Below the pieces are notes generated by a model. The model was not told where the DNA came from. It saw only the letters and a list, made by a program, of their open reading frames with translations, and did no database searches. Below are positions 1 to 42,159 of a stretch of 64,000 nt of DNA, piece by piece. The translations under genes and the position numbers were made by a program. The stretch's first letter is position 1. Every line of letters starts with the position of its first letter. Location: the sequence record OR352938.1. One strand, given 5' to 3'. This DNA comes from Escherichia phage AV108.

Positions 1-174
1 TTTTTGAAATTAATTCTGCTTTGATTTCGCAGAGAACATCTAAAGATTTCTCGTCACCCGCTTTTGCTGCTTCTGCTTGCATTTTTGAAATGGCTTCAAT
101 GTCAGTGCAATTATAAGCCGCTTGAACTTTAGCTATTGCGATGATTGCCGATTCGATGGTTAAGTGTTTCATGT
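1..174 (-). CDS. hypothetical protein, partial (3' end runs off the window start)
   Basis: ATG at 172-174 preceded by GGAG RBS and promoter at 205-234; frame open to position 1. Confidence 0.4.
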
Positions 175-204
175 TTGATTCTCCTTTCGTTTCGGTATGT
201 GTGC

Positions 205-234
205 ATTATAGGGGATCACCGATCCCCCTGTCAA
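205..234 (-). promoter_or_regulatory. sigma70-type early promoter (TTGACA-N18-TATAAT on minus strand)
   Basis: + strand attata at 205-210 and tgtcaa at 229-234; spacer is the palindrome GGGGGATCGGTGATCCCC with two GATC sites. Confidence 0.6.
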
Positions 235-241
235 CAATTTT

Positions 242-760
242 TTAGTTATTTTTTAATTGCTCATCTTGCAATAGGGCAATCACATGCTGGCGATGTTCTT
301 CCGATTGAGGCACACCGAAAAAGTTTGTTTTGTAGAAATACTCTAATCGGTCTTCTCGTGTGCTCTCTTCCATCATGATCGCGGGTAGTCCGAGATTTCG
401 GAAACGTCGCTTTTCTGCTGGCGTAAAATCACTGTAATACAACATAGAATCATCATTACAAGCAATGCTAAACTCATCCTTCATAAAGGAGAATATTGCG
501 TTTAAACGCTGTTTACCGTCCACGATTTCGATCTCATAGCGAGAGCCATCATCAATCTTAGCCATTGCGATAGCACCAACCGGAAAATCATTAATCAGGT
601 TTTCGATAAACATACGTTTGTTTTCGGTGTCCCATACTAAAGGACGCTGATAATCTGGGTTCATGTTGATATAGCCATCTTCTAACCATGCATCATAAAC
701 AGAGATGACAAAGTTTTTAGTATTGGTATAGTAACGGCGTTTAGGCGTTAAACGGTTCAT
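242..760 (-). CDS. DUF262/ParB-like nuclease-domain protein
   Basis: DGxQR-type motif (IVDGKQRLNAI); ORF track 242..796, likely start is the ATG at 758-760 (MNRLTPK) with AGGAGA RBS, abutting the upstream gene stop. Confidence 0.5.
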   Translation of the reverse strand: MNRLTPKRRYYTNTKNFVISVYDAWLEDGYINMNPDYQRPLVWDTENKRMFIENLINDFPVGAIAMAKIDDGSRYEIEIVDGKQRLNAIFSFMKDEFSIACNDDSMLYYSDFTPAEKRRFRNLGLPAIMMEESTREDRLEYFYKTNFFGVPQSEEHRQHVIALLQDEQLKNN

Positions 761-761
761 G

Positions 762-1094
762 TTATAGTCTCCTGAATGGATCATCACGTAAATCAATATC
801 TTTTAAGAACTCAACCCATGAATGCCGGATATTGTTCTTAATTCTCCAGATAAGCGCAGGGATTGAACGCTCTCCCATCTGGAAGTATGGATCATATGAT
901 CCGTATGCCCAATATGCTACTACAATTCCACAATCAGCGCAATAGTATTCTATTTCACTTGCTGGCGACCAAAGTCCATCAATATGATCGGTGATCTTGC
1001 TTTCGATGTTATGGCTATGACAATCAGGGCAACGGATGCAATGACCTTGTTTATCGTAATTTGACGTTAGCGAATACTTAAACAATCTCATCAT
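762..1094 (-). CDS. Cys/His-rich zinc-ribbon protein
   Basis: CxxC...CxxC pattern (CIRCPDC ... CADCG); start overlaps upstream stop (ATGA); function unknown. Confidence 0.5.
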   Translation of the reverse strand: MMRLFKYSLTSNYDKQGHCIRCPDCHSHNIESKITDHIDGLWSPASEIEYYCADCGIVVAYWAYGSYDPYFQMGERSIPALIWRIKNNIRHSWVEFLKDIDLRDDPFRRL

Positions 1095-1807
1095 AGATCC
1101 TTATTGGCTTCAAATACTGCCTTTGCGAATCCTCGCGGGGTAAGTGACCTTATAGTCTTTGTTTTCGTTCCTTTCCCGCCTAGCTTAGAATGCTGTTTAC
1201 TGTACCCTTTATTAATCTGCAACGGTTTCTTTTCTGGCATTATAAAGCCTTGTCCGGTCCATAAGCAAGTCTTTTTCGGGTACATATCACGGGCGGCGAT
1301 ATACTCAGGAAAAGTAGGATGTTTATCATCTTCCGGCAAATAACCGCCATATTCCCACGGATGGAACATGTAATCAGGCTTACGCCACATACTAGAGATA
1401 ACGCTTACAGGATTCTCTATCATGTAGGGAACTCCTAGCCATTCACCCAAATAAGCGGTTATTTTAGCTGCCCTTACATCATGAACTTGAATCAATGGTC
1501 CTTGTTCTAGTTTCTTTCGTTCAAAGTGCGCAGCGCCACTAACAGCTAAATTGGTGCACGGTGGGAATGCAAAGATAATATCCGGTTTCCCCCATTCAAG
1601 GTCCATTGCTCTTTCCAGCCAATTCAAATCAATCCATGTGTTTACATAGGTAATGTTTGGATGTTCAAATCTGGTATTATACTTTTTGTATGTACCGTGG
1701 TCGGCGTCATCCGCATTAAAGCAGACTACCTTATGACCTGCTTTAGCCCATTCTAGCCCCATTATCCCCGATCCGTCAAAGTTGCAGAATATTAATTTTT
1801 GTTTCAT
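1091..1807 (-). CDS. compact C5-cytosine methyltransferase-like protein
   Basis: motif I-like FDGSGIMG, motif IV-like FPPC, motif VI-like IENP, motif IX-like RSLTPR; only 238 aa with no obvious target-recognition domain. Confidence 0.5.
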   Translation of the reverse strand: MKQKLIFCNFDGSGIMGLEWAKAGHKVVCFNADDADHGTYKKYNTRFEHPNITYVNTWIDLNWLERAMDLEWGKPDIIFAFPPCTNLAVSGAAHFERKKLEQGPLIQVHDVRAAKITAYLGEWLGVPYMIENPVSVISSMWRKPDYMFHPWEYGGYLPEDDKHPTFPEYIAARDMYPKKTCLWTGQGFIMPEKKPLQINKGYSKQHSKLGGKGTKTKTIRSLTPRGFAKAVFEANKDL

Positions 1808-2049
1808 ATACGACCCTTTAACCCAGCACAGATTTTAGTCGGTTCTTTACCGTGCCACATTAAGTAAAGTCCGTTAATGCGACCTTGTTTTGTGTGTGAT
1901 TCTTTTCTGATCTTCTTATAGTGTCGTGCTTCCTCAACTGATTGTTTAGAATACCAATCATAAAGGAAGAGGCACAAAGGCCAACCATTAGCGGCCTTAA
2001 TGCAGTTATTAAGAAATTCCTTATTGCGTTTAATTAATTTTCTTTTCAC
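1804..2049 (-). CDS. hypothetical protein
   Basis: 81-aa ORF, start and stop coupled to neighbours by ATGA overlaps in the same operon. Confidence 0.45.
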   Translation of the reverse strand: MKRKLIKRNKEFLNNCIKAANGWPLCLFLYDWYSKQSVEEARHYKKIRKESHTKQGRINGLYLMWHGKEPTKICAGLKGRI

Positions 2050-2297
2050 GCTGCCCCCATTGGTTTGATAGTAACAGAATCTAAAAGACCTTTGTTAGCC
2101 AGTTCTCGGCAAGTTTTCAGATCCGCAACTTCCCAGCCAGCCGCAATCAGGTTATCAATCAGGCTGTTAGCAACTTCTTCGCTCATGAAAGAGCACTGTT
2201 TGCCGATGGTGTAGCGCACACGCTGTAATTTCAGTTTACGGAAGCCTTTAACGTTCAGGTCTTTAGCGATTTTCTTTGCGGTTTCGATGTTAACCAT
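2046..2297 (-). CDS. hypothetical protein
   Basis: 83-aa ORF; AGGAGAATCAAACA-ATG leader; promoter at 2338-2366. Confidence 0.5.
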   Translation of the reverse strand: MVNIETAKKIAKDLNVKGFRKLKLQRVRYTIGKQCSFMSEEVANSLIDNLIAAGWEVADLKTCRELANKGLLDSVTIKPMGAA

Positions 2298-2337
2298 TGT
2301 TTGATTCTCCTAAGTGGTATCTCGTCTTGATGGTTGT

Positions 2338-2366
2338 ATTGTAGGGGAGTTATCCTCCCCTGTCAA
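2338..2366 (-). promoter_or_regulatory. sigma70-type early promoter
   Basis: tgtcaa at 2361-2366 (TTGACA), TACAAT-like -10, 17-nt palindromic spacer GGGGAGGATAACTCCCC. Confidence 0.5.
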
Positions 2367-2380
2367 CACTTTTTATAAAA

Positions 2381-2548
2381 TTATTTGTTAATTTCTGGTG
2401 CGTTGCTAGGATAGTAACCTTCTTTAACTCCGAGGTATTTCGCAACCATCCCTACAATCTTCTGTGCTACTACAATGTCAAATTTAAGATAATCTTCGCC
2501 GTGGGTTTCAATGATATATGCTTCACATGCTGCTTTAGTCTCGAACAT
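2381..2548 (-). CDS. small protein (55 aa), copy 1 of a duplicated gene
   Basis: ATG at 2546-2548 with GGAGAATCAAA leader, TAA at 2381-2383; translates MFETKAACEAYIIETHGEDYLKFDIVVAQKIVGMVAKYLGVKEGYYPSNAPEINK; below the ORF-track size cutoff. Confidence 0.5.
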   Translation of the reverse strand: MFETKAACEAYIIETHGEDYLKFDIVVAQKIVGMVAKYLGVKEGYYPSNAPEINK

Positions 2549-2581
2549 TTTGATTCTCCTATTTAGTTTCGTTATGTGTGC

Positions 2582-2610
2582 ATTATAGGGGATCTCCCGA
2601 TCCCCGTCAA
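2582..2610 (-). promoter_or_regulatory. sigma70-type early promoter
   Basis: attata 2582-2587 and cgtcaa 2605-2610; spacer palindrome GGGGATCGGGAGATCCCC. Confidence 0.55.
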
Positions 2611-2624
2611 CAACTTTTTTAAAA

Positions 2625-2906
2625 TTATTCGTGATTAGTTTCGATGTTGTGTATTTTGCACCAGTTCAGCCAATCGCCAAGATCCTGATAGTTGATGCTT
2701 TTATCTGCTGCCATCGTTTTTGTCTTGATACCCATATGTGCGTTATGGGTAAGCATTTTTACAGTGAACTCAATTTTATCGCCTTTAGCTTTAACATCAA
2801 CCAGTTTGGTCCACTGGCTACCAGCGCCTCGAATGTTCATACCAACGATGTTTCCGATGTATGCTTCTTTGTTTTTCAGGATTTCGGTTGCTTTGATGAA
2901 TTTCAT
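2625..2906 (-). CDS. hypothetical protein
   Basis: 93-aa ORF with GGAGAATC RBS; own promoter at 2940-2968. Confidence 0.55.
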   Translation of the reverse strand: MKFIKATEILKNKEAYIGNIVGMNIRGAGSQWTKLVDVKAKGDKIEFTVKMLTHNAHMGIKTKTMAADKSINYQDLGDWLNWCKIHNIETNHE

Positions 2907-2939
2907 TTTTGATTCTCCAGTTCGTTTCGGTATGGGTGT

Positions 2940-2968
2940 ATTATGCTATGTTCTTACTTTGGTGTCAA
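2940..2968 (-). promoter_or_regulatory. sigma70-type early promoter
   Basis: tgtcaa 2963-2968, CATAAT-like -10 at 2940-2945. Confidence 0.5.
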
Positions 2969-2976
2969 CAACTTTT

Positions 2977-3246
2977 TTAGATATTTTCAGAAATAAATTT
3001 TAAAACTTGACGTAAATGTTTCTCATCTTTGATAGTCGCCGGAAGTTCTTCTTTTACTTCCTGTGCAAGATAGATATTTCCGTTCCAAGTGAAAGATCCG
3101 TCTTCGTTTACGCGATAGCTGAACATCCACTCGCAATCATTTTCGATTTCATATACACACAGAAGGGTGTAATCGTTAAAGCTATTGATTTCAAGGTCGA
3201 AGCCGTGACGTTTTGCAAAGTTGGTAGTGGTTTTAGTCAGCGCCAT
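2977..3246 (-). CDS. hypothetical protein
   Basis: 89-aa ORF, AGGAGAATCAAACA-ATG leader, promoter at 3287-3315. Confidence 0.55.
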   Translation of the reverse strand: MALTKTTTNFAKRHGFDLEINSFNDYTLLCVYEIENDCEWMFSYRVNEDGSFTWNGNIYLAQEVKEELPATIKDEKHLRQVLKFISENI

Positions 3247-3286
3247 TGTTTGATTCTCCTAAGTGGTATCTCGTTTCGATGGGTGT

Positions 3287-3315
3287 ATTATGCTATAGGC
3301 GTGATCTGGTGTCAA
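3287..3315 (-). promoter_or_regulatory. sigma70-type early promoter
   Basis: tgtcaa 3310-3315, CATAAT-like -10 3287-3292, 17-nt spacer. Confidence 0.5.
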
Positions 3316-3340
3316 CAACTTTTTTAATTTTTTGGAAATA

Positions 3341-3366
3341 AAAAAGCCGACACTAAGGTCGGCTAA
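3341..3366 (-). terminator. rho-independent terminator
   Basis: hairpin AGCCGAC-N6-GTCGGCT followed by a U-run on the minus-strand transcript, just downstream of the 3372..3680 stop. Confidence 0.6.
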
Positions 3367-3371
3367 TAAAA

Positions 3372-3680
3372 TCATTTAGACAAATAATCATTCAGTGCAA
3401 TCCGGTCGGCGTATGCTGGTGTTACGTCAATCGCAATCACTTTAACGCGTGCTTTCTTGCGACCTGGGTTTTCTCGTAACCAGTGCTCATGACCGTGAAC
3501 ATTTTTATACTTTGATGCTTCTTCAAATGTACGGATCGGACCTGGATAATCTGCGTAAAGGATCTCTAGGTCTTCGGTGATGTAAAAATATACATCATAA
3601 TTACTGTTCTCTAGTTTAAGCAGAGACTTTCTGAACATTGGGAGATTTTCGCGGGTAAATTCAAAGATATTATCTTTCAT
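3372..3680 (-). CDS. small protein, HxHxW/V-x-A-I-D-V paralog family member A
   Basis: 102 aa; GAGGA RBS; motifs HGHEHW and VIAIDV shared with five other ORFs in 4103-6778. Confidence 0.55.
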   Translation of the reverse strand: MKDNIFEFTRENLPMFRKSLLKLENSNYDVYFYITEDLEILYADYPGPIRTFEEASKYKNVHGHEHWLRENPGRKKARVKVIAIDVTPAYADRIALNDYLSK

Positions 3681-3733
3681 AGTATTATCCTCAATAGTTT
3701 GATGAAAAGGGGTGGGGCTTAACGCCCCGTATA

Positions 3734-4021
3734 TTAAAACAGTCCTTCCTGTACACCGTAGTAGAGTTCATCGCTGATAATTTCATTAATGCGACGGTGT
3801 GCATATTCCTGATTTGCGAAGTTATCAGCAAGTTCTACTTTAGTTTCGCCGTCATGAGTCCATTTAGTGATAACTTTACCATCTGCAAATTTGAAGTTGA
3901 ACTCTTTAGCTACTGCATCACGTACCAGACGTGCGAACTTGTTGTTACGGATTGCATTATCGGTTTCGTGTGCAGCGTGAGCGAATTTATTAACTTTCAG
4001 AGTGATAGTAATGTATGCCAT
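3734..4021 (-). CDS. hypothetical protein
   Basis: 95-aa ORF with GGAGAATCAAC leader; promoter at 4068-4096. Confidence 0.55.
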   Translation of the reverse strand: MAYITITLKVNKFAHAAHETDNAIRNNKFARLVRDAVAKEFNFKFADGKVITKWTHDGETKVELADNFANQEYAHRRINEIISDELYYGVQEGLF

Positions 4022-4067
4022 AAGTTGATTCTCCTAGTTAGAAAGTGTATCTCGTTTCGATGGGTGT

Positions 4068-4096
4068 ATTATGCTATACACCCGATCTTATGTCAA
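4068..4096 (-). promoter_or_regulatory. sigma70-type early promoter
   Basis: tgtcaa 4091-4096, CATAAT-like -10 4068-4073, 17-nt spacer. Confidence 0.5.
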
Positions 4097-4102
4097 CACT
4101 TT

Positions 4103-4381
4103 TTATAAAATAATTTTTTGATATTTTTCTATGATGTTTGTGTAGGTCACGTCAACCGCTAGCACCGTTGCTTCGAATCCACCGTTTAACCAATGGCTAT
4201 GATCATGATCGTGAAAGAAACCTAGACCAGTACGAAGACCTTCTTTATATTCGGAGCGTACATTTAGATCATCATCGATAAACAGATAAAACCATGAATT
4301 TTTACTAGGATTGATGATACAACCTTTCAGATTAGGGAGAATATCACGACTAAGAATAAACTTATCACCTACTTTGAGCAT
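4103..4381 (-). CDS. small protein, paralog family member B
   Basis: ORF track 4103..4471; likely start ATG 4379-4381 (MLKVGDK) with GAGGAA RBS; motifs HDHDHSHW and VLAVDV. Confidence 0.5.
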   Translation of the reverse strand: MLKVGDKFILSRDILPNLKGCIINPSKNSWFYLFIDDDLNVRSEYKEGLRTGLGFFHDHDHSHWLNGGFEATVLAVDVTYTNIIEKYQKIIL

Positions 4382-4404
4382 AATATTTTCCTCACTTATA
4401 AAGT

Positions 4405-4704
4405 TTAACTGTTGTTTTTCTCGTAATGCTGAATGCGTGCTTGATCTGCTTCCGCTGGTGATAGATTCCATGCAACCACTACAACTTCTGACGCATCGTC
4501 ATCCGTTTTTGATACCCAATGATTGTGATTCATACAGTTATTTGCTATCGAGTGAGCAAATGATTTCATCACTGGAGACGTATAATCATAGTAACGGATT
4601 TTCAGATTTTCATCAACGTACAAATAGATCGTATAAGGTTTATATTCAGTAACCAGTAACAGACAGTTACGCAATTCTGGGAAAATCTTTTTAGTTAATT
4701 TCAT
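4405..4704 (-). CDS. small protein, divergent paralog family member E
   Basis: ORF track 4405..4785; likely start ATG 4702-4704 (MKLTKK) with GAGGA RBS; motif NHNHW and VVVVAW. Confidence 0.45.
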   Translation of the reverse strand: MKLTKKIFPELRNCLLLVTEYKPYTIYLYVDENLKIRYYDYTSPVMKSFAHSIANNCMNHNHWVSKTDDDASEVVVVAWNLSPAEADQARIQHYEKNNS

Positions 4705-4705
4705 T

Positions 4706-4945
4706 TTATAATCCTCGGTCGCGGCTATAGTACACGGTACGCCATACAATTTCATGTTTCGTGTCGCTCCAGCACACGATCTCATTTACTCTTAAATCTT
4801 TGTTATCAACAAAAGATGAACATTGTGACGCTTCTTTCATCATTTTATCTGCTGTTTTCTCATCAAATACAGCACAGATTTCTTTATACACTCGATAATC
4901 TTTGAATTGACTCTGGATACCCATAATTAACACCATTCCAACCAA
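4706..4945 (-). CDS. small protein, member of a second tandem paralog pair
   Basis: SQFKDYRVYKEICAVFDEKTADKMMKEASQC resembles the neighbouring 4884..5147 product; exact start uncertain. Confidence 0.4.
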   Translation of the reverse strand: MVGMVLIMGIQSQFKDYRVYKEICAVFDEKTADKMMKEASQCSSFVDNKDLRVNEIVCWSDTKHEIVWRTVYYSRDRGL

Positions 4946-5147
4946 TTGTTTTTGAGAAAACGTTTATCCACTGTTGAGTGTAGCATGTTTCTTTCCATGA
5001 TACAATACGAGTAGAATAATGGTTTTTGTTTCCAGAAAAGGACGGGCATTTTGATGCATCTTCCATCATCTTTTCGGCGAACTCTGGTGCGTATACTCGC
5101 AGGATCTGTTGATATGCTTTGTATTCTTTAAATTTGCTCATAATCAT
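4884..5147 (-). CDS. small protein, member of a second tandem paralog pair
   Basis: SKFKEYKAYQQILRVYAPEFAEKMMEDASKC resembles the 4706..4945 product. Confidence 0.45.
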   Translation of the reverse strand: MIMSKFKEYKAYQQILRVYAPEFAEKMMEDASKCPSFSGNKNHYSTRIVSWKETCYTQQWINVFSKTIGWNGVNYGYPESIQRLSSV

Positions 5148-5406
5148 TCACTACCTTATCAGCTTCTTTTGTTGTTTTTACATCAACTGCGATAACTCGT
5201 AAAGGTTCGTCATGGTTCCACCAGTGGTCATGAATATCAGCTTGTGATTTATCACCAAAGGAATCACGAATATCATTTTTACATTTATAGCTAATGTGAC
5301 CTTCATAGTCAACATAAAGGTAATTATCGAAAATCGGCGTTTTTAAGATCATACCGAAAAATCTTTCTTTGTGTGTCTTATCCAGCGTTGCAGTAATTCG
5401 CATCAT
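5128..5406 (-). CDS. small protein, paralog family member C
   Basis: AAGAGGAA RBS; motifs HDHWW and VIAVDV. Confidence 0.5.
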   Translation of the reverse strand: MMRITATLDKTHKERFFGMILKTPIFDNYLYVDYEGHISYKCKNDIRDSFGDKSQADIHDHWWNHDEPLRVIAVDVKTTKEADKVVNDYEQI

Positions 5407-5418
5407 AATATATTCCTC

Positions 5419-5598
5419 TTAGAAAGGGATGGTCATTTCTTGAGCTTGTACATTCTCGTTAGGATTAAACTTCATCCAACCGATATTGTCTACCAGCATA
5501 TGCACATTTTTATCATATCCTACGTGGGTAGTCAATACTGTATGTGCTTTACCTTCAATGATGAGTTCCATGTACTTCTGAACTTCGATAGCTTTCAT
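5419..5598 (-). CDS. small protein (59 aa), below the ORF-track cutoff
   Basis: ATG 5596-5598 with GGAGAATCAAA leader, TAA 5419-5421; MKAIEVQKYMELIIEGKAHTVL...; promoter 5631-5659. Confidence 0.4.
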   Translation of the reverse strand: MKAIEVQKYMELIIEGKAHTVLTTHVGYDKNVHMLVDNIGWMKFNPNENVQAQEMTIPF

Positions 5599-5630
5599 TT
5601 TGATTCTCCGTTTGTTGTCTTGATGGGAGT

Positions 5631-5659
5631 ATCTTACTACTCCCTTTAATCATTGTCAA
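5631..5659 (-). promoter_or_regulatory. sigma70-type early promoter (variant spacer)
   Basis: tgtcaa 5654-5659, TAAGAT-like -10 inside palindrome GGGAGTAGTAAGATACTCCC. Confidence 0.45.
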
Positions 5660-5662
5660 CTA

Positions 5663-5830
5663 TTATTTGTTAATTTCTGGTGCGTTGCTCGGATAGTAAC
5701 CTTCTTTAACACCAAGATATTTTGCAACCATTCCGGTGATCTTCTGTGCTACTACGATATCGAATTTCAGGTAGTCTTCACCGTGGTTTGCTACAATGTA
5801 CGCTTCGCATTCTGCTTTAGTCTGGAACAT
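5663..5830 (-). CDS. small protein (55 aa), copy 2 of a duplicated gene
   Basis: MFQTKAECEAYIVANHGEDYLKFDIVVAQKITGMVAKYLGVKEGYYPSNAPEINK; about 80 percent nt identity to 2381..2548 including leader; ORF track lists 5663..5896. Confidence 0.5.
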   Translation of the reverse strand: MFQTKAECEAYIVANHGEDYLKFDIVVAQKITGMVAKYLGVKEGYYPSNAPEINK

Positions 5831-5864
5831 TTTTGATTCTCCTATATCTCGTTGGTATGTGTGC

Positions 5865-5893
5865 ATTATAGGGGATCGGTGATCCCCTGTCAA
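5865..5893 (-). promoter_or_regulatory. sigma70-type early promoter
   Basis: attata 5865-5870, tgtcaa 5888-5893, spacer palindrome GGGGATCACCGATCCCC. Confidence 0.6.
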
Positions 5894-5898
5894 CAACT

Positions 5899-6192
5899 TT
5901 ATAATGCTTTATATGCGTATTTCATAAATTTGTCTGCCACTTCATTGGCATGTTCAGATTCTACGCCTGATTCGAGAACAATAGCTAGGTCGGTTTCGTC
6001 ATTCCCGCCGTACCAATGATTTGATGTTCGATTTTTTTCAATTGGAAATTGGTCACTTTTATCTGTGCGACAAAATACATCTAAATGCTCGTCGATGTAA
6101 AAGATCCAATCTTCATAAAGAATAACGGTATTAGCAAGATTTTTATTGCCTTCAACGAAAGGTTCGGCTACAAACAAATTAGTATGTTCCAT
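5899..6192 (-). CDS. small protein, divergent paralog family member F
   Basis: ORF track 5899..6249; likely start ATG 6190-6192 (MEHTNLF) with GAGGAA RBS; motif SNHW and AIVLESG. Confidence 0.45.
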   Translation of the reverse strand: MEHTNLFVAEPFVEGNKNLANTVILYEDWIFYIDEHLDVFCRTDKSDQFPIEKNRTSNHWYGGNDETDLAIVLESGVESEHANEVADKFMKYAYKAL

Positions 6193-6208
6193 AGTATTTT
6201 CCTCAAAA

Positions 6209-6400
6209 TTATACAGCTTCGTAAACTTCCCAATGTCCAACACCAGCACGCTTAACGAAAAGGTTTTCTTTGATGTTATTCATAAACGTCTGGATGGATT
6301 TAATGCGATTTGAAGGTTTCCAGTCTTCGTTGGCATTGCGTCGATACATCATAACATTACCAGTTCGCTTATATTCAGCAACCATTTTAAGACCACACAT
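6209..6400 (-). CDS. hypothetical protein
   Basis: 63-aa ORF with GAGGA RBS at the correct spacing. Confidence 0.45.
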   Translation of the reverse strand: MCGLKMVAEYKRTGNVMMYRRNANEDWKPSNRIKSIQTFMNNIKENLFVKRAGVGHWEVYEAV

Positions 6401-6457
6401 AATATTATCCTCAATTTGTGGGAGAGTATTACCCCTCCCAATGATTGTTATGTTATA

Positions 6458-6778
6458 TCACACAAAATGGCGTGTCAATGCTTCTTTTGCGGTTCCGCTA
6501 AGACTTTCGATCTCTCCTGGCATAACATCAACCGCCAGAACTTCTACAACATCCTCGGACCCTAACCAGTGAGTATGACCTTTGTAGAACTTAATAACCA
6601 GACTACCTTCCTCGTCCCATTTAACGCTATCGCTAGCCCACCACACATCACCGTCGATAAAGTTGATGTAAAGCACACTACGCCACATTGAATTAATTAC
6701 TTTCAATACTGCGCCTTTCATCTCTTCCACGGTATGGTCTTCCATTTTGAAGACCTCACCTACCTGAACTTTTGCCAT
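6458..6778 (-). CDS. small protein, paralog family member D
   Basis: GAGAGGTG RBS; motifs HTHW and VLAVDV. Confidence 0.5.
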   Translation of the reverse strand: MAKVQVGEVFKMEDHTVEEMKGAVLKVINSMWRSVLYINFIDGDVWWASDSVKWDEEGSLVIKFYKGHTHWLGSEDVVEVLAVDVMPGEIESLSGTAKEALTRHFV

Positions 6779-6795
6779 TTAGTCACCTCTCTTTA

Positions 6796-6975
6796 TTACA
6801 TAACAATCACGCCAGCCGTTGAAAGTTGATGTTTCAACTGAGCATTTTCTGCTACCGTCAAATCAATGATTTCTTGTGACGCTGCAATCATATAGCCATT
6901 GGTGATATTGTTTTGCATCAGTTCAATGGTTTCTTCGTTGTAGCGGATTTTAGCGATGATTTCGTTGAAGTTCAT
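6796..6975 (-). CDS. small protein (59 aa), below the ORF-track cutoff
   Basis: ATG 6973-6975 with AGGAGAATCAATT leader, TAA 6796-6798; MNFNEIIAKIRYNEETIELMQ... Confidence 0.4.
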   Translation of the reverse strand: MNFNEIIAKIRYNEETIELMQNNITNGYMIAASQEIIDLTVAENAQLKHQLSTAGVIVM

Positions 6976-7009
6976 AATTGATTCTCCTAGTTCGTTTCGG
7001 TATGTGTGT

Positions 7010-7038
7010 AGTATAGGGGATCACCGATCCCCTGTCAA
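7010..7038 (-). promoter_or_regulatory. sigma70-type early promoter
   Basis: tgtcaa 7033-7038, TATACT-like -10 7010-7015, spacer palindrome GGGGATCGGTGATCCCC. Confidence 0.55.
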
Positions 7039-7050
7039 CAACTTTTTGAA

Positions 7051-7527
7051 TTATTTTTCTTGATGCTCGCGATCGTACTTTTCGAAATAAAATTCTACTG
7101 GCTGGTCGTGGATTGACAGCAAGCCAAAGCGTTTAGCCGCTCGCAATCCCATATTGCGCTGAATGTACTTCTGGAAGTTCTCGCGTATACACTTACGCCA
7201 GGATTCTAAGCCCATGCAGCTTTTATAAAGATTGCATTGCACACATGCCGGATTCATGTTATCAAGTATATCATGCTCCGGTTTATGCATTCCTACAACC
7301 TTATACTTCCACGATCCATCATCATTACGGGCAATTCGTCCATTTTCATCATAGACAACCTTTGAGCGTCGTAATACTGGTTTGATATGGTCTGCGTGCC
7401 AGCGATCCCCTAGTTCCTCGCCACAATAGGCACAACGTCCACCGTATTTCATTTTCAGGATCTGACGTTGCTCTTTCTTTGACAATTTTTTAGGTTTAGG
7501 GGCTTTCGCCCCTTCATTATCACACAT
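7051..7527 (-). CDS. HNH endonuclease-domain protein
   Basis: CxxC ... HADHIKP ... CVQCN zinc-finger HNH pattern; starts immediately after the ligase stop. Confidence 0.6.
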   Translation of the reverse strand: MCDNEGAKAPKPKKLSKKEQRQILKMKYGGRCAYCGEELGDRWHADHIKPVLRRSKVVYDENGRIARNDDGSWKYKVVGMHKPEHDILDNMNPACVQCNLYKSCMGLESWRKCIRENFQKYIQRNMGLRAAKRFGLLSIHDQPVEFYFEKYDREHQEK

Positions 7528-14833: not shown

Positions 14834-14903
14834 CTTGATACTCCTTAGTTGTTTTGGTATGGGAGTATCTTACTAAGTATCTTACTACTCCCCAACTGCT
14901 TTT

Positions 14904-15053
14904 TTATGCAACCGCAAACATCAACATTTGAACATTCTTGGCTGTCTGGCTTTCAAAGTTCTGACATTCTTTGATAATGTCCTCTACTTTCTCGCCGGAG
15001 ATCTCCGCGTAAGTTTCGATTGCCATTTTCAGTACCGCGTCAAAGTTGTTCAT
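14904..15053 (-). CDS. small protein (49 aa), below the ORF-track cutoff
   Basis: ATG 15051-15053 with GGAGAATCAA leader; promoter 15086-15114. Confidence 0.35.
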   Translation of the reverse strand: MNNFDAVLKMAIETYAEISGEKVEDIIKECQNFESQTAKNVQMLMFAVA

Positions 15054-15085
15054 TTGATTCTCCTTTGTTTCGTTTCGATGGGGGT

Positions 15086-15114
15086 ATATTAATACCCCCG
15101 TTATTCAGTGTCAA
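15086..15114 (-). promoter_or_regulatory. sigma70-type early promoter
   Basis: tgtcaa 15109-15114, TAATAT -10 inside palindrome GGGGGTATTAATATACCCCC. Confidence 0.5.
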
Positions 15115-15121
15115 CTACTTT

Positions 15122-15394
15122 TTACTTGTTGTATTCATTCCACCATTGGGTGAGCTTATCAATTATTTTTGTGTTTCTATCCAACTTATCCCACCGTTTT
15201 CGAGGGTTTATCAACCGTAATAGGTAAGGTGTACTTGTTAAGTGAACTCGGTCAATATAGTGATTGATGTACTGTTTTTCGATTCTAAGTTTCATCTTTT
15301 TACGATGAAAATATGCAATGACTTGTTCTTCTGTTTCCATATGTTCCTCCGTTTCGATGTGTATTATGCTATGGCAAGATCCGATTGTCAACAC
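15122..15394 (-). CDS. hypothetical protein
   Basis: ORF track 90 aa; the promoter at 15363-15391 lies inside the 5' end, so the real start is probably the internal METEEQ. Confidence 0.4.
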   Translation of the reverse strand: MLTIGSCHSIIHIETEEHMETEEQVIAYFHRKKMKLRIEKQYINHYIDRVHLTSTPYLLRLINPRKRWDKLDRNTKIIDKLTQWWNEYNK

Positions 15395-15438
15395 CCAATA
15401 ACAAAAAAGTCGCCACTATGGGCGACTTTGAACAAACA

Positions 15439-17823: not shown

Positions 17824-18027
17824 TCAGGAAGAATCGCCCATTCTACAACCGTATTCATCCTCGACGTAGTAGCAAGTCCCATCATGTCGAGCATCATATT
17901 CATCACCAACAACAAAGCTATCAGCTAGCTCAAAATCTACAGCAACACATTTTAATTTGGTCATAATAAAATCCTCACTTGTTTTTGATGGTTGTATTAT
18001 AGCGGGGATTTCTCCCCGCGTCAACAC
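17824..18027 (-). CDS. hypothetical small protein
   Basis: promoter 17996-18024 lies within the listed 5' end, so the likely start is the internal MTKLK. Confidence 0.35.
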   Translation of the reverse strand: MLTRGEIPAIIQPSKTSEDFIMTKLKCVAVDFELADSFVVGDEYDARHDGTCYYVEDEYGCRMGDSS

Positions 18028-18032
18028 TTATT

Positions 18033-20276
18033 TTACAGCTTGCAAGATGAGCACTCGCTAGCGTCTTCCGTACCATCAGCACCGTCGCGAACGTTCGCAT
18101 AATACAGGGTTTTCAGACCGTAATATTGAGCAAACAACATATCATCTAACACATCAGCAATATCGACTTTACCAGTCTTATAAGTGCTTGGATCGTATGA
18201 TGTATTGGAACTAATCGCCTGATCCACAAACTTCTGCATGATCGCTGCCAGTGTCAGATAAGGCTTGTTACCTTTCTTGATCAGTGTCCAAAGCAGGTCA
18301 ATAACATCAGCATTATTCTCTACGTTCGGAATAACCTGATTAAATTGCCCTTCTTTCGATCCTTTAACCGATACAATACCGCGAGGCGGTTCAATACCGT
18401 TTGTGCTGTTAGATACCTGAGAAGACGACTCACAAGGCATCAGAGCCGAAAGCGTACTGTTACGAATGCCATATTTTTTCAGGTCTTCGCGCAGTTCTTC
18501 CCAATCCATCTCATATACCGGATCAACCAGTTCATCTACTGTCTTTTTGTACCAGTCGATAGGCAGTTCACCGCGTCCATAACGTGTTTCGTGCATCAGT
18601 TCGCAAGCACCCTTCTCTTTAGCCAGTTGCACACTAGCCTTAATCAGAGCATATTGCAAGCGTTCAAACGTTTTATGCGTAAACTCGTTAGCGTCTTCAT
18701 ATGTGAAGAAATTATCCGCGAGATACGATGCAAAGTTAGTCACCCCAACACCCAGAGAGCGACGTTTTTTGGATGTCAGAGCTTGCTCTACAGGATAATC
18801 CTGGTAATCTAACAGGTTGTCAAGTGCACGCACCATAACCATAGCAATGCGTTCTACTTCTTCCATATTTTCGATATCAAAGTTTCCTAAAACATATGCT
18901 GCCAAAGTACATAGGCTGATCTCTGAATCATCACGACCCATCGGTTTTGTAGGCAGAGCAATTTCACAACACAGGTTGGATTGTTTAATCGGTGCTACAT
19001 TACGAATAAACGCCCCGTGATTGTTCATGTTGTCTGTGAACGTTGGGTAGATTCGACCAGTGTTAAAACGTTCAATTGCCACCGCTAAAAACAGGTCTTC
19101 GGCTTTAACACGAGTTTTACGAACACTCGGATCTTTTTCCAGTTTTTCGTAAAGCTGGCGGAAACCTTCCTCATCTCGGAAGTATAGATCCCACAACAAG
19201 CCACCTGCAACATCTGGACTAAACAGAGTAATGTAATCCCGTTTAAGGAATCGCTCTACCATCAGGTTATTAATCTGTACGCCGTAATCAAGATGACGAA
19301 TGCGGTTATCTTCCACCCCCTTATTGTTCTTTAACACAATCAGACTTTCAAACTCTAAATGCCACATTGGGTAATAGAGAGTCGCCGCCCCGCCACGAAT
19401 ACCGCCTTGTGAGCATGACTTAACGGCAGTCTGAAAATGTTTCCAGAATGGGATAACGCCAGTATGACGAACTTCACCATGCCCGATCTTAGATCCTTCC
19501 GCGCGAATCATGCCAGCGTTGATACCGATACCAGCACGCTTGCTAATATACTTGATGATTGCATTTGCTGTTTCGTTGATGCCCTGCAATGAGTCATCAC
19601 TTTCAATCACCACACACGAACTAAATTGGCGTGTTGGGGTACGCACACCTGCCATAATCGGAGTAGGCAGAGAGATTTGCTTATTCGCAACAGCATTATA
19701 AAAATCAATCACATGTTCAAGTCTATTTTCGGTCTCTTCTTGATGCAAGCACATACCGATCAGCATATACGCAAATTGCGGTGTTTCGATGATTTTCTTA
19801 GTGCTGCGATCCTGAACAAGATATTTCTCTTTTAACTGCATCGCACCAGCATAGGTCATTTTAAAATCAAGTTTATGGTCGATGAATTTCTCCAGATATT
19901 CCACTTCTTCACGGGAATACTTTTGCAGAATTTCGCGATCATATTTTCCGATTGCAATATTACGCTCAATATGGCTATAAAAATCAATAGGTTGGAATTG
20001 ACCGTATACTGATTTACGAAGCGCGAACATTGCAAGGTTACTTGCTACATATTGATAATCGGGTGTTTCTACCGTGATGTTATCTGCGGCGACCTTAATC
20101 AATACTTTCTGGATATCATTGGTAGACATACCTTCTGTCAGAAGTGGTTCAACCATATCAAACAATTCATATGGATCAACGTTATGACCTTCGGCTGCCG
20201 CTTCCAGAATTTTCATTACTTTTTCTTTTTCAAACGGAACAGTCAGACCGGAAGACTTAACAACATTTTTAATCAT
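18033..20276 (-). CDS. nrdA: ribonucleotide reductase large subunit
   Basis: 747 aa, long identical blocks to T4 NrdA as recalled (GVIPFWKHFQTAVKSCSQGGIRGGAAT, NSTLSALMPCESSSQVSNSTNG). Confidence 0.92.
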   Translation of the reverse strand: MIKNVVKSSGLTVPFEKEKVMKILEAAAEGHNVDPYELFDMVEPLLTEGMSTNDIQKVLIKVAADNITVETPDYQYVASNLAMFALRKSVYGQFQPIDFYSHIERNIAIGKYDREILQKYSREEVEYLEKFIDHKLDFKMTYAGAMQLKEKYLVQDRSTKKIIETPQFAYMLIGMCLHQEETENRLEHVIDFYNAVANKQISLPTPIMAGVRTPTRQFSSCVVIESDDSLQGINETANAIIKYISKRAGIGINAGMIRAEGSKIGHGEVRHTGVIPFWKHFQTAVKSCSQGGIRGGAATLYYPMWHLEFESLIVLKNNKGVEDNRIRHLDYGVQINNLMVERFLKRDYITLFSPDVAGGLLWDLYFRDEEGFRQLYEKLEKDPSVRKTRVKAEDLFLAVAIERFNTGRIYPTFTDNMNNHGAFIRNVAPIKQSNLCCEIALPTKPMGRDDSEISLCTLAAYVLGNFDIENMEEVERIAMVMVRALDNLLDYQDYPVEQALTSKKRRSLGVGVTNFASYLADNFFTYEDANEFTHKTFERLQYALIKASVQLAKEKGACELMHETRYGRGELPIDWYKKTVDELVDPVYEMDWEELREDLKKYGIRNSTLSALMPCESSSQVSNSTNGIEPPRGIVSVKGSKEGQFNQVIPNVENNADVIDLLWTLIKKGNKPYLTLAAIMQKFVDQAISSNTSYDPSTYKTGKVDIADVLDDMLFAQYYGLKTLYYANVRDGADGTEDASECSSCKL

Positions 20277-22832: not shown

Positions 22833-22863
22833 AATATAATCCTCTCTTTGTTTCGATATGTGC

Positions 22864-22891
22864 ATTATACACTATTGCGTTACGCTGTCAA
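22864..22891 (-). promoter_or_regulatory. sigma70-type early promoter
   Basis: tgtcaa 22886-22891 and attata 22864-22869. Confidence 0.45.
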
Positions 22892-24058
22892 CTCTTTTTC
22901 AAAAGATTTTACGATATACATGATGGTGCTCAATTCGGACGGCGCTACTGTCTCTGTGTAGCCATCCGGCATATCTTCTTTCGAGATATAGGAAGTTTTA
23001 CCTTTCATTACTTCCTTGATTTTGTTCTCTAATTCTAAGATCTTTTGACCGTCTTGTAAAGTCAATTCATAAAAGATCTCATGATCGAACTTTGAAACAC
23101 GAGATTGGTTTCTCATGCGCTCATGTGTTTCTTTGTTTGTTATTCCAAATTTCACGCCAACAAAGGAATCATTGTTGGTTAATTTCTGTATATAAAGAGT
23201 TCCTGTCTTTAATGCCTGATAACCATGCTTAGAACACAACGGGCAGCGTGTTCCGCGATTAACAAAATTATCAATAGTTACATCCCATTCATGGTTACGT
23301 TCGCATGTCAGAAGTATTCTTGTTAATGCACCTTTCCACTTTCCTGAAATCCCAATAAATTTTAGTCTGTTGGTTTCGCATATTTTTTCAATTTGTTTTA
23401 ATCGGTCACTTTTTGTTATTGGTGCTGTTCCGCTACATTTGCGACACCGACGACCTAGTTTGAACTTATCATAACTTTGTTCGTAAATGTGATTATTAGG
23501 ACACTCAAATTTAAGTTTAGTTTTTGTTCCTCTCCATTCCCCAATTATACCCAAAAATTTATAATCTCCTTTATTTTCATTTATATAAGATAAGGAATCT
23601 TCTTTATCATGCATCTTGCCCCCGTTACATAAAGGACATCTTGTTTTTTGATGAATGAAATCTGTATATGTTGGTTGGTATGTGTGTCCGTTTGTACAGT
23701 TCATAATGAGTCTTGTTCTGCTATTTTTATACTCCCCACCAACAAAACCAACAAATACATCGTTTGTTTCTTGTTTTATTCTTTCTATCACATTGTTTGG
23801 GTTTAATCTTTGAGAATCAACCACACATTTCTTACACGAAACGTTTTTCCTGATATTTGCTAGAGTTGATGTGTATTCATGCTTGTTATTACATAATATA
23901 AGAGCTTTTGTTTTGAGACCAGACCATTCTCCAACAAACCCCATGAAAGAATAACCAACTTCCAAACATGAATTTTTTACAACATTTTCCCAATAGAAGG
24001 GAGTTTTCGTGTTTCCTTTTATTTCTATACTAATCTCATGTGCTTGACGTACTAACAT
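22880..24058 (-). CDS. four-repeat Cys/His module protein with a GIY-YIG-like C-terminal segment
   Basis: four tandem modules of about 65 aa of form F-x-G-(F/I)-x-G-(E/K)-(W/Y)-x(4)-(T/R)-x(4)-C-x(2,3)-H-x(14,15)-C-x(2)-C; C-terminal LYIQKL-N9-VGVKFGIT; start taken at ATG 24056-24058 with GGAGGA RBS; ORF track to 24103. Confidence 0.5.
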   Translation of the reverse strand: MLVRQAHEISIEIKGNTKTPFYWENVVKNSCLEVGYSFMGFVGEWSGLKTKALILCNNKHEYTSTLANIRKNVSCKKCVVDSQRLNPNNVIERIKQETNDVFVGFVGGEYKNSRTRLIMNCTNGHTYQPTYTDFIHQKTRCPLCNGGKMHDKEDSLSYINENKGDYKFLGIIGEWRGTKTKLKFECPNNHIYEQSYDKFKLGRRCRKCSGTAPITKSDRLKQIEKICETNRLKFIGISGKWKGALTRILLTCERNHEWDVTIDNFVNRGTRCPLCSKHGYQALKTGTLYIQKLTNNDSFVGVKFGITNKETHERMRNQSRVSKFDHEIFYELTLQDGQKILELENKIKEVMKGKTSYISKEDMPDGYTETVAPSELSTIMYIVKSFEKELTA

Positions 24059-24088
24059 ATTTTTATCCTCCGTTGTTTCGATGATTGT

Positions 24089-24116
24089 ATTATACATTAC
24101 CACATCAGCATGTCAA
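24089..24116 (-). promoter_or_regulatory. sigma70-type early promoter
   Basis: tgtcaa 24111-24116, attata 24089-24094. Confidence 0.45.
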
Positions 24117-24142
24117 TACATTTTCATAAAATTTTAGGCAAT

Positions 24143-24168
24143 AAAAAAAGCCTTCCCGAAGGAAGGCT
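24143..24168 (-). terminator. rho-independent terminator after gene 32
   Basis: hairpin AGCCTTCC-cgaa-GGAAGGCT followed by a U-run on the minus-strand transcript. Confidence 0.65.
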
Positions 24169-24178
24169 TTAAAATTCA

Positions 24179-41816: not shown

Positions 41817-41849
41817 AATATATTCCTCAATGTTTTTCTTGATGGGAGT

Positions 41850-41878: not shown

Positions 41879-41885
41879 CTACTTT

Positions 41886-42098: not shown

Positions 42099-42126
42099 GT
42101 GATTCTCCTTTAGTTTGGTATGGGAG

Positions 42127-42155: not shown

Positions 42156-42159
42156 ACAA

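Follow-up and report, generated by a model that had tools for sequence, protein, structure and literature searches.

Repeated early-promoter cassettes of Escherichia phage AV108 are very probably PeSLs of the RB49/phi1 group

Introduction

What are the promoter cassettes that recur between positions 205 and 7038 of a 64,000-nucleotide stretch of Escherichia phage AV108 (OR352938.1; hereafter the window), and what is the role of the palindrome that many of them contain? The source phage is a Krischvirus, an RB49/phi1/GEC-3S-like T4-type coliphage with 93-98% identity to ~60 records, and its alignment places phi1 ORF186-212 and RB49 ORF189-212 at window positions 1-7200. This segment is the hyperplastic region of phi1 ORF186-212. 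The same genomic region, studied by reporter and mini-circle experiments, is where PeSLs (promoter-early stem-loops), composite regulatory units of RB49/phi1-group T4-like phages, were described (Arbiol et al. 2010, Genome Biol Evol 2:140, PMC2839356; Comeau et al. 2014, PMC4122927).

Results

A profile built from eight cassette copies and searched over the 64 kb (threshold E<0.05) recovered 21 copies, all on the minus strand, in agreement with an initial annotation that had counted at least twenty minus-strand promoters. An unbiased repeat search recovered the same cassette families, and the repetition is far beyond chance, with 20 matches to TTGACA-N17-TATAAT (at most one mismatch, all minus strand) in the window versus 0.81 expected. 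Across the window and 11 relatives, the early-gene strand holds 143 of 143 copies. Ten of the eleven additional sites listed in the initial annotation belong to the family, but 56343 is a generic promoter-like match only; two copies, at 15391 and a weak intragenic one at 59722, are additions. Copies are named below by the first T of the -35 hexamer, and all features described lie on the minus strand.

The cassettes, each placed between two small early genes, are ~90 bp long and directly oriented. In each, an A-rich tract that includes the stop codon of the previous gene is followed by TTGACA; a spacer of 17-18 nt separates this hexamer from a TATAAT-like -10, and an A/C-rich leader then runs to a Shine-Dalgarno (SD) sequence and ATG. 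The leader had been called near-invariant, which describes the 13 of 21 copies ending in (N)GGAGAATCA; the remainder have GAGGA(W)-type sites. Copies share exact homology blocks that are short (13-32 nt), including a 32-nt leader block common to 2366 and 3315. Likeness extends to non-functional positions (leader GCACACATACCGAAACGAA and upstream AAAAAGTTG), with profile E-values down to 1e-23.

The cassette anatomy agrees point by point with the published description of PeSLs, and the region is the one covered by the PeSL paper; on these grounds the cassettes are very probably PeSLs and, having already been published as such, are not new. The cassettes and the published PeSLs occur in the same phage genus and genomic region. 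In both, an A-rich tract with the upstream stop codon is combined with consensus sigma-70 hexamers, the GGGG..CCCC-type stem-loop varies in position, and the 3′ end carries SD and ATG; both also cluster ahead of ORFans in hyperplastic regions, where their copies bound indels. Nothing essential differs.

Assignment as early promoters is well founded, given consensus sigma-70 hexamers, restriction to the early-gene strand and annotation as promoters in GEC-3S. A PeSL206/205 clone from phi1 or RB49 (source phage not stated), corresponding to window 5893, proved a strong promoter, yielding ~13,000 Miller units as a lacZ fusion (PMC2839356), and the RB49 early promoter consensus is consistent with 5′ end mapping (PMC1524935). 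The promoter role, shown for orthologues in this literature, is one that we infer here from sequence: the A-rich tract and near-consensus -35/-10 would attract host sigma-70 RNA polymerase in its unmodified form as soon as infection begins. Efficient translation would then follow from the unstructured A/C-rich leader and SD GGAGAAUCAAA. This SD agrees with the RegB/S1 cleavage consensus at 10 of 11 positions, and such a RegB-like site may allow early-mRNA shut-off.

Perfect GC-rich hairpins (arms of at least 7 bp) occur in 12 of 21 copies versus 1.1% of background positions (binomial P ~1e-18). These 7-9 bp hairpins fill the spacer in six copies and enclose the -10 in six, with folding z-scores of -1.6 to -5.9 versus ~0 for three hairpin-less copies. 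The inverted repeat initially placed in the spacer is indeed found there as GGGGATC-N3/4-GATCCCC in four copies, and two further copies have GGGGAG..CTCCCC or GCGGGGA..TCCCCGC at this position; GGGAGTA..TACTCCC, in contrast, surrounds the -10 hexamer, and the same holds for GGGTGTAT/ATACACCC, GGGGGTAT/ATACCCCC and GGGGATAT/ATATCCCC.

Cassette 234 (167..253), upstream of the phi1 ORF186 homologue and with leader end AGGAGAATCAAACATG, has GGGGATC-ggt-GATCCCC between -35 and -10 in an 18-nt spacer (z -2.2). Cassette 2366 (2292..2386; phi1 PeSL191/190) carries the GATC-free spacer hairpin AGGGGAG-gataa-CTCCCCT (z -4.5), and 2610 (2548..2630; phi1 PeSL193/191) combines a TTGACG -35 with GGGGATC-ggga-GATCCCC. 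The hairpin is AGGGGATC-acc-GATCCCCT in 5893 (5828..5911), the orthologue of phi1/RB49 PeSL206/205, and AGGGGATC-ggt-GATCCCCT in 7038 (6969..7057), which is phi1 PeSL210/209 fused to 212/210. Cassette 18024 (17983..18036) has the spacer hairpin GCGGGGA-gaaa-TCCCCGC (z -5.9) and a different SD, GTGAGGATTTTATTATG. Stems around the -10 are GGGTGTAT-agcata-ATACACCC in 4096 (4018..4115; z -3.1), GGGAGTA-gtaaga-TACTCCC in 5659 (5597..5664; -10 TAAGAT; z -3.0) and again in 41878 (41836..41891), GGGGGTAT-taat-ATACCCCC in 15114 (15052..15124), the 9-bp ATGGGAGTA-gtatta-TACTCCCAT in 42156 (42100..42174; z -4.3), and GGGGATAT-atcata-ATATCCCC in 49732 (49691..49751). A spacer-hairpin cassette also precedes each member of a duplicated gene pair (repeat family D3, 172 nt, 84% identity), the homologues of phi1 ORF191 (55 aa; 2380..2551) and ORF205 (5662..5833).

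A hairpin scan of all copies found no perfect internal hairpin in 9 of 21, four of which have a canonical terminator immediately upstream. The latter are 3315 (3241..3364), where the terminator at 3345-3364 (AGCCGACC..GGTCGGCT, then a T-run) lies just upstream of the -35; 15391 (15351..15429; terminator 15406-15429); 24116 (24067..24170; consensus hexamers, 16-nt spacer, 9-bp terminator 24147-24170); and 42658 (42593..42699; -35 TTGACT, terminator ~42677-42699). Degenerate copy 14895 (14834..14906) has lost its TTGACA -35 and retains GGGAGTA/TACTCCC arms around a loop enlarged by a tandem duplication (gtaagatact x2). The others are 2968 (2900..2988; -10 CATAAT, SD TGGAGAATCAAA, z +0.2), 22891 (22849..22910; consensus hexamers, 16-nt spacer, no strong hairpin), 55802 (55740..55807; SD AGGAGAATCAAT, z -1.3) and the doubtful 59722 (59683..59730; E 4e-4), which lies inside the coding region of the phi1 ORF021 homologue with no SD or ATG downstream. 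Overall, a stem-loop of any sort is missing from four or five cassettes.

Whether it occupies the spacer, surrounds the -10 or immediately precedes the -35, the GC-rich stem-loop would fold in incoming transcripts of the upstream gene and attenuate or terminate them, so that each small gene would be transcriptionally insulated. One RB49 spacer-type hairpin, the PeSL211/210 stem-loop, showed terminator-like activity in a lacZ assay, with a reduction comparable to that of rrnB T1 (PMC2839356). RNA 3′ of most internal hairpins reads UAUAAU or AUCAAG and not a U-run, and a generic terminator scan called a single site, the separate terminator upstream of 3315 at 3345-3364. Termination at the internal stems is thus non-canonical, with the reporter assay of one hairpin as its support; given that most stems lack a U-tract, the exact barrier mechanism is something we infer. 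The stem-loop might instead mainly protect the 3′ end of the upstream mRNA as a processing barrier, or modulate its own promoter via spacer GC content or conformation. We consider this unlikely, although it would account for the missing U-tracts, and the sole functional assay, being a reduction in lacZ, cannot tell termination apart from RNA processing (PMC2839356). True terminators directly upstream of stem-less copies likewise suggest that internal stems are perhaps not equivalent to terminators. Against such a role stand the resemblance to rrnB T1 in that assay and the placement of the stem just after the upstream stop codon, which suits a terminator or attenuator.

The variation among stems bears on the proposal that the dyad is an operator for a dimeric regulator or, more broadly, a binding site for a dimeric, sequence-specific phage or host protein that represses early promoters or directs site-specific exchange between cassettes. 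Many stems do share a GGGG...CCCC core, which the PeSL authors speculate to be a recombination protein target (PMC2839356), and the dyad overlaps the polymerase-binding region like classic operators. Yet the window and 11 relatives contain 17 distinct stems with compensatory pairs; at 4096, for example, the orthologue in phi1, GEC-3S and FL38 is GGGGATAT/ATATCCCC, a difference of two compensatory base pairs. Dyads occupy two registers relative to the -35 (+5..+23 and +13..+36), their loops range from 3 to 6 nt, and ~40% of copies have none. At orthologous sites stem types are swapped with flanking genes unchanged, and ggt/acc loops are flipped. The mismatches in all three imperfect stems are G.T or T.G on the sense strand only, a pattern that suits RNA folding better than recognition of double-stranded DNA, albeit weakly with n=3. 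What is conserved is stem structure, not sequence. Neither RB49 nor phi1 yielded an integrase or repressor (PMC2839356). A protein-binding site is quite improbable, and the operator proposal is not upheld.

Another suggestion was a methylation-sensitive element; in this reading, spacer GATC would render these promoters, or recombination there, sensitive to Dam (or other GATC) methylation. In 8 of 21 copies GATC does sit at a fixed distance from the -35 (+8 to +10), versus 11% of random 24-mers that contain a GATC, and in the TAGCATAAT sub-family it forms a near-invariant island (~2 bits per position) between variable flanks. This island persists even outside any dyad. GATC lies at +9 in 3315, at +10 in 15391 and, outside the dyad, at +9 in 49732. 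However, because descent and conversion link the copies to one another, their constant spacing cannot count as independent evidence. GATC is absent from 13 of 21 copies, and GATC-free stems take its place at ELT4 and FL38 orthologous sites and in window copies 2366 and 18024; the exchange also runs the other way, the FL38 site orthologous to 2366 having a GATC-type hairpin. Window-wide, GATC is at expectation (363 observed, 350 expected), and a term search found no mention of GATC or Dam in the PeSL papers. Methylation sensitivity is thus very improbable and is not supported as a general property of the cassettes.

Gene content was compared between the window and 11 relatives to relate cassette edges to gene gain and loss. 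In nine indel variants each of the two junctions falls within a cassette, versus approximately five variants at cassette-free gene junctions of the same region; measured against gene junctions, this is a moderate enrichment only. Five are insertions (ORF210; ORF210 and ORF211; ORF192; a different JSE insert at the ORF192 site; ORF195/196) and four are losses: an ORF191 deletion, the phiS ORF206-209 deletion with its left end at 5893, a MIZ4 ORF186-191 deletion deduced from gene order and an alignment start at window 186 (its far junction lies outside the window), and an ORF186 loss deduced solely from alignments starting at window 170-186. The window is in the empty state at four PeSL-bounded sites, without ORF192, ORF195/196, ORF210 or ORF211. 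Cassette 2610 is where RB49 and FL38 have ORF192 and JSE a different ORF; 3315 is the ORF195/196 insertion site of RB49, Brandy, MIZ4 and UPWr_E1; and 7038 represents the excised state of a site where relatives have ORF210, or ORF210 and ORF211, inserted.

Over the whole window, all three pure indels relative to phi1 are at cassettes. The phi1 genome has ~280 bp more at 15114, bordered by copies of that cassette, and a 490-bp insertion exactly at the upstream edge of 41878. The 3′ end of 24116 forms one edge of a gene replacement relative to phi1, and the remaining differences from this phage are homing-endonuclease gene swaps and tail-fibre divergence. Mosaic (chimeric) cassettes display indel junctions directly, and duplicated copies border inserted segments. 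Mini-circles are known for ORF192 and ORF210, with chimeric PeSLs sequenced, and a mini-circle crossover was mapped to the 2366/3315 pair, between -10 and ATG (PMC2839356). Independent convergence of strong promoters on the sigma-70 consensus, with no role in plasticity and with indels at cassettes only because viable indels must be intergenic, is hardly credible and largely refuted: selection on hexamers and SD is strong and some indels do sit at cassette-free junctions, but the copies are alike through non-functional positions, junctions fall within them, inserts are bordered by their duplicates, and the mini-circles carry chimeric PeSLs.

Discussion

Comparative data here and mini-circle sequencing in the literature show the recombination pattern. 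The suggested hotspot that shuffles small-gene cassettes is supported and corresponds to the published function of PeSLs. With many direct copies and exact shared blocks, crossover between copies is possible, and the phage's own homologous recombination system would carry it out. The small genes between copies would thereby be deleted, duplicated, inserted (via mini-circles) or converted, with their expression signals left unbroken.

Several known systems invite comparison. The PeSL authors drew an analogy to integron gene cassettes (PMC2839356), which are likewise small units, frequently of one gene, that have imperfect palindromes at their borders and can circularise and re-insert at like sites. 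Integrons, however, depend on IntI, a tyrosine recombinase that acts on attC in folded single-stranded form, and their cassettes are usually promoterless; PeSLs have no known integrase and one promoter per cassette, and their exchange resembles short-homology recombination. Morons of lambdoid phages (Hendrix et al. 2000) are single extra genes between resident genes, with their own promoter and terminator, but their regulatory signals do not recur as conserved repeats, nor are they believed to mediate mobility, whereas PeSLs are a repeated family in which homology itself is the vehicle. Early promoters with stem-loops also flank hypervariable small genes as PeSL-like elements at T-even internal-protein (IP) loci and in PST/T4 and nt-1/KVP40; with T4-type early promoters (GTTTAC -35) and weaker AT-rich stems, these are analogues and not homologues.

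By term search, the 2010 paper does not mention stem-type swapping, ggt/acc loop flips, the GATC island or the RegB-like SD, and the present comparison further adds confirmation of PeSLs across 11 more genomes. Overall, the direct PeSL copies double as recombination points through which small genes come and go.

Results

Identity of the region and cassette census

Megablast of window 1-7200 matched 63 phage records, 37 of which reached at least 80% query coverage at 93-98% identity, and all long matches were to Krischvirus genomes (RB49, phi1, GEC-3S, JSE and many recent isolates). Both phi1 ORF186-ORF212 and RB49 ORF189-ORF212 are colinear with this segment, a run of ~25 small minus-strand genes of unassigned function flanked by alt and DNA ligase. 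In GEC-3S, promoter, -35 and -10 signals are already annotated at the homologous positions.

The initial annotation had proposed a repeated minus-strand promoter cassette at 205-7038 and at eleven further sites, and this family proved to be real and well located. Eight obvious copies, taken from -22 to +75 relative to the -35, served to build an nhmmer profile (cut-off E<0.05), which recovered 21 copies in the window, every one on the minus strand; each is named here by the position of the first T of its -35. Independently of the profile, TTGACA-N17-TATAAT with at most one mismatch occurred 20 times against 0.81 expected, with 20/20 matches on the minus strand, and an unbiased direct-repeat search recovered the same cassette families. 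A recognisable -35 is kept in 20 of the 21 profile copies, and eight of the nine copies in 1-7200 have promoter scores of 11-12 of 12 (copy 5659 scores 10). Across the window and its eleven relatives, all 143 copies lie on the early strand and represent 83 distinct cores; the plus-strand tail-fibre block of the window has none. Ten of the eleven further sites belong to the family. The remaining one, 56343, was rejected as a generic promoter match with a terminator-like hairpin downstream, while copy 15391 and a weak copy at 59722, rated doubtful because it is intragenic, had been missed. A scan of IMG/VR for more copies with the 14-mer AAAAGTTGTTGACA returned >120 unrelated contigs, all chance matches.

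Consensus-like promoters also occur outside the family on the minus strand, at 56320-56371 and 50060-50102. Each is directly followed by a terminator-like hairpin and T-run (GCCTCC..GGAGGC TTTTTT and GGGAGA..TCTCCC TTTTC, respectively), and a transcript starting at either would reach a terminator almost immediately.

The cassettes are promoter-early stem-loops

Feature for feature, the window cassettes match the promoter-early stem-loop (PeSL) of phi1 and RB49. Arbiol et al. 2010 (PMC2839356) defined the PeSL as an AT-rich tract that contains the stop codon of the upstream gene, sigma-70 hexamers, a stem-loop, a Shine-Dalgarno (SD) sequence and ATG. The stem-loops are often polyG...polyC and fall into five positional subclasses, with sites between the hexamers, across a hexamer, upstream of the -35 or downstream of the -10. 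The genomes of phi1 and RB49 carry 52 and 51 PeSLs, most of which precede ORFans in hyperplastic regions (PMC2839356). In the window, direct reading of copies 234, 2366, 2610, 5893 and 7038 places a TAA 6-20 nt upstream of TTGACA, followed by AAAAAGTTG. The sigma-70 promoters are near consensus (TTGACA, 17+/-1 nt, TATAAT-like), and the 3′ end comprises an SD and the start codon of the downstream gene, with the doubtful 59722 as sole exception. Nine copies fall within the 7-kb ORF186-212 block, whose genes are hypothetical, and the others precede small hypothetical ORFs interspersed with core genes. Neither the element nor its location or role is new, as all were described in 2010 for phages sharing 93-96% identity with AV108.

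Reading these sites as early promoters was correct and likewise already published. The experiments of that study drew on the very region covered by this window. Copy 5893 is the counterpart of PeSL206/205, whose wild-type clone yielded ~13,000 Miller units of lacZ (PMC2839356). The stem-loop of PeSL211/210, a spacer-type GGGGAT-cacgt-ATCCCC hairpin, lowered downstream lacZ about as strongly as rrnB T1 (PMC2839356). Sequenced mini-circles, some with ORF192 and others with ORF210, each had a chimeric PeSL (PeSL literature). Furthermore, Nolan et al. 2006 (PMC1524935) cite 5′ end mapping in RB49 by Desplats et al. 2002, by which such sites have in effect already been confirmed as transcription start regions in a close relative. 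Promoter, terminator/attenuator and mini-circle activities have been demonstrated experimentally in orthologous elements only, and are predicted for the AV108 copies by orthology.

Hairpins occupy several registers

Perfect GC-rich hairpins with arms of 7-9 bp are present in 12 of the 21 copies, versus 1.1% of window positions over a comparable interval (binomial P ~1e-18). These counts were used in place of the minimum free energy of 48-nt windows, a poor discriminator for which 13% of windows reach <=-10 kcal/mol. Dinucleotide-shuffle z-scores were -1.6 to -5.9 for the 12 hairpin copies and ~0 for three hairpin-less copies. Six hairpins occupy the spacer register, spanning +5 to +23 relative to the -35 (234, 2366, 2610, 5893, 7038, 18024), and six enclose the -10, at offsets +13 to +36 (4096, 5659, 15114, 41878, 42156, 49732). 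The GGGAGTA...TACTCCC dyad, initially placed inside the spacer, belongs to this second register. Copies 3315, 15391, 24116 and 42658 have no perfect internal hairpin and carry a canonical terminator (stem and T-run) directly upstream of the -35; 2968, 22891, 55802 and 59722 have neither hairpin nor upstream terminator. Copy 14895 (14834-14906) is decayed, with its -35 lost and its loop duplicated. At the level of the family, a stable stem-loop, often polyG...polyC, thus lies at one of several positions.

The duplication at 14834-14906 is a tandem one within the loop of a GGGAGTA/TACTCCC hairpin, in which gtaagatact occurs twice. Similar remnants, a hairpin plus SD with no -35, precede ORF192 in FL38 and RB49.

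Lacking a T-run, the internal hairpins were passed over by a generic terminator scan, and canonical intrinsic termination is therefore not claimed for them. Rfam at gathering threshold gave 0 matches to curated RNA families over the whole window, and the cassette is not an RNA gene.

A cassette leader with a RegB-like SD

The leader had been described as near-invariant. Its motif, (N)GGAGAATCA, is present in 13 of the 21 copies, and in the others a ribosome-binding site of the GAGGA(W) type takes its place. The leader sequence is A/C-rich and lacks structure. In this region, promoter-distal genes have a conserved ribosome-binding site of another kind, TGAGGAWAATAYTATG, which makes the GGAGAATCAAA leader a property of the cassette and not of phage genes generally. 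The SD GGAGAAUCAAA matches the T4 RegB/S1 cleavage consensus GGAGRAYARAA at 10 of 11 positions, and the RegB of RB49 is divergent but active. This SD may thus serve in early-mRNA shut-off, as judged from its resemblance to the consensus. Examples lie at window 174-185, 2300-2311 and 5832-5843.

Gene-content differences are often bounded by cassettes

Alignment of window 1-8200 with eleven relatives, with matches chained, supported the proposal that the cassettes are recombination hotspots, a reading that is also published. Cassettes contain both junctions of nine indel variants, two of these being inferred only, as against ~5 variants located elsewhere. At ~7047-7067, ORF210 is inserted in GEC-3S, ELT4 and MIZ4, as well as in phi1 (whole-window comparison) and FL38 (gene table), and the same site holds ORF210 plus ORF211 in FL37 and RB49. 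ORF192 is inserted at 2624-2629 in RB49 and FL38, where JSE has a different 367-bp insert. An ORF195/196 insertion of ~407 bp at 3268-3363 (RB49, Brandy, MIZ4, UPWr_E1) is flanked by duplicated terminator-plus-cassette copies. Deletion of ORF191 in Brandy and UPWr_E1 fused cassettes 2366 and 2610, with the chimeric cassette visible, and a 1090-bp deletion of ORF206-209 in phiS fused 5893 and 7038. The two inferred variants are the absence of ORF186-191 from MIZ4, deduced from gene order with the far junction beyond the window and outside the chaining, and the absence of ORF186 from several phages, deduced from alignment starts at 170-186 alone. Since the window lacks ORF192, ORF195/196, ORF210 and ORF211, it represents the 'empty' state at four PeSL-bounded sites.

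The variants at cassette-free gene junctions lie at 1806/2033 (two forms), 4139-4922, 6206-6398 and 6776-6778; indels thus favour cassettes without being confined to them. Five of six simple insertions fell at cassettes, which make up ~36% of gene junctions (binomial P ~0.03, our own calculation). Between the window and phi1, all three pure indels lie at cassettes (7047, 15049-15124, 41895), and replacements involve tail-fibre segments or homing-endonuclease-type genes (HNH+NUMOD3; CapR/treble-clef protein; HNH_3+AP2). Exact blocks common to cassette pairs span 13-32 nt. The longest, 32 nt in the leader, is shared by 2366 and 3315, the pair to which the PeSL paper mapped the crossover of a four-ORF mini-circle, in the zone between the -10 and ATG. 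An integron attC/cassette system has an IntI tyrosine recombinase and attI beside its array. No integrase was found among ten proteins scanned with Pfam (seven from 1-7600 and three from the replacement sites at ~17.1-17.8, 22.9-24.1 and 56.9-57.5 kb), and none is reported for RB49 and phi1 in the PeSL literature.

The homing-endonuclease-type genes (17079-17753, 22880-24103 and 56908-57471, minus strand) sit where replaced or extra segments distinguish the window and phi1. These differences are not cassette-bounded, one end at 24056 excepted. The CapR-homology/treble-clef protein has 407 aa and four repeats.

The block entirely missing from MIZ4 (ORF186-191) includes the genes at window 242-1807. 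Within it, ORF 242-796 (minus strand) carries the N-terminal GmrSD/DUF262 domain alone (E 7e-20) and adjoins a zinc-ribbon ORF (762-1094) and ORF 1091-1807 (minus strand), which is labelled a C5 DNA methyltransferase in relatives and has no Pfam match at 0.01. Six small minus-strand ORFs within 3372-6778 of the hyperplastic region (3372-3680, ~4103-4381, ~4405-4705, 5128-5406, 5899-6189 and 6458-6778) are apparent paralogues at 14-30% identity, with an invariant H-W pair and a V(I/L)A(V/I)DV-like motif in common. They have no Pfam match and look like a tandemly expanded ORFan family.

Discussion

The dyad had been suggested to serve as an operator for a dimeric regulator, as a methylation-sensitive element or as a recombination hotspot. 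Beyond the indels that support the last of these, the stems themselves vary. Among the 143 copies there are 17 distinct stems. Upstream of ORF198, GGGTGTAT/ATACACCC is replaced at the orthologous position by GGGGATAT/ATATCCCC, a compensatory change of both arms. Upstream of ORF209, seven genomes carry four hairpin modules (GATC-type with a ggt, acc or ggga loop, and GGGGAG-gttaaa-CTCCCC), with one substitution in the adjacent 60 nt of coding sequence in the same genomes. Loops of the GGGGATC..GATCCCC hairpins (234, 5893, 7038) alternate between ggt and acc at orthologous sites between strains, and both orientations are present in the window. As ggt and acc are exact reverse complements of each other, the variants point to flipping of one palindromic hairpin or to conversion from paralogous copies. 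Turnover of stem-loop modules by conversion or flipping far outpaces change in the flanking sequence. The three imperfect stems all have G.T or T.G on the sense strand, which would pair in RNA and not in the antisense; this is suggestive of RNA-level selection, though not significant at n=3. Overall, compensatory stems, module swapping, loop flips and mismatches argue for selection on the sense-strand fold with frequent segmental exchange, and against a sequence-specific operator, a reading that is not supported.

A methylation-sensitive element is likewise unsupported and of low probability, since GATC is absent from 13 of the 21 cassettes and dispensable at orthologous sites. In the window as a whole GATC is at expectation (363 observed versus 350). 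The one exception is the sub-family with -10 TAGCATAAT, whose 15 distinct spacers show almost no variation in the GATC at offset +9 although its flanks vary freely, and this GATC usually lies outside any dyad; as the copies are related, no P value is given.

This GATC island, at offset +9/+10 from the -35, is seen at 3315, 4096, 15391 and 49732 and in homologues in relatives, mostly outside dyads, and the published PeSL model does not explain its near-invariance. In a term search, the 2010 PeSL paper proved silent on GATC, Dam, RegB, inversion and conversion. It is a long shot that cassette exchange is directed, as opposed to passive short-homology recombination, with the fixed-offset GATC and GGGG..CCCC stems marking a nick or binding site. 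Such a site might be acted on by a methyl-directed (Dam/MutH-type) agent or by a phage protein initiating crossover or hairpin-templated switching. If true, directed exchange would also account for the ggt/acc flips and for stem modules being exchanged so rapidly at orthologous sites. In the whole window, GGCC is strongly under-represented and has the lowest ratio of all 4-bp palindromes (0.46; 33 observed versus 72 expected from trinucleotides).

For this window, the value of the results is confirmatory, in that eleven genomes sequenced since 2010 support the published PeSL model. Besides this eleven-genome replication, the analysis adds to the model the turnover of stem modules, the GATC island and the resemblance of the SD to a RegB site. 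PeSLs are among the few concrete mechanisms proposed for the gain, loss and shuffling of small accessory genes in large lytic phages. As proposed, such shuffling would leave expression undisturbed, and in that sense PeSLs are the "linker sequences" of Botstein's theory of modular evolution.
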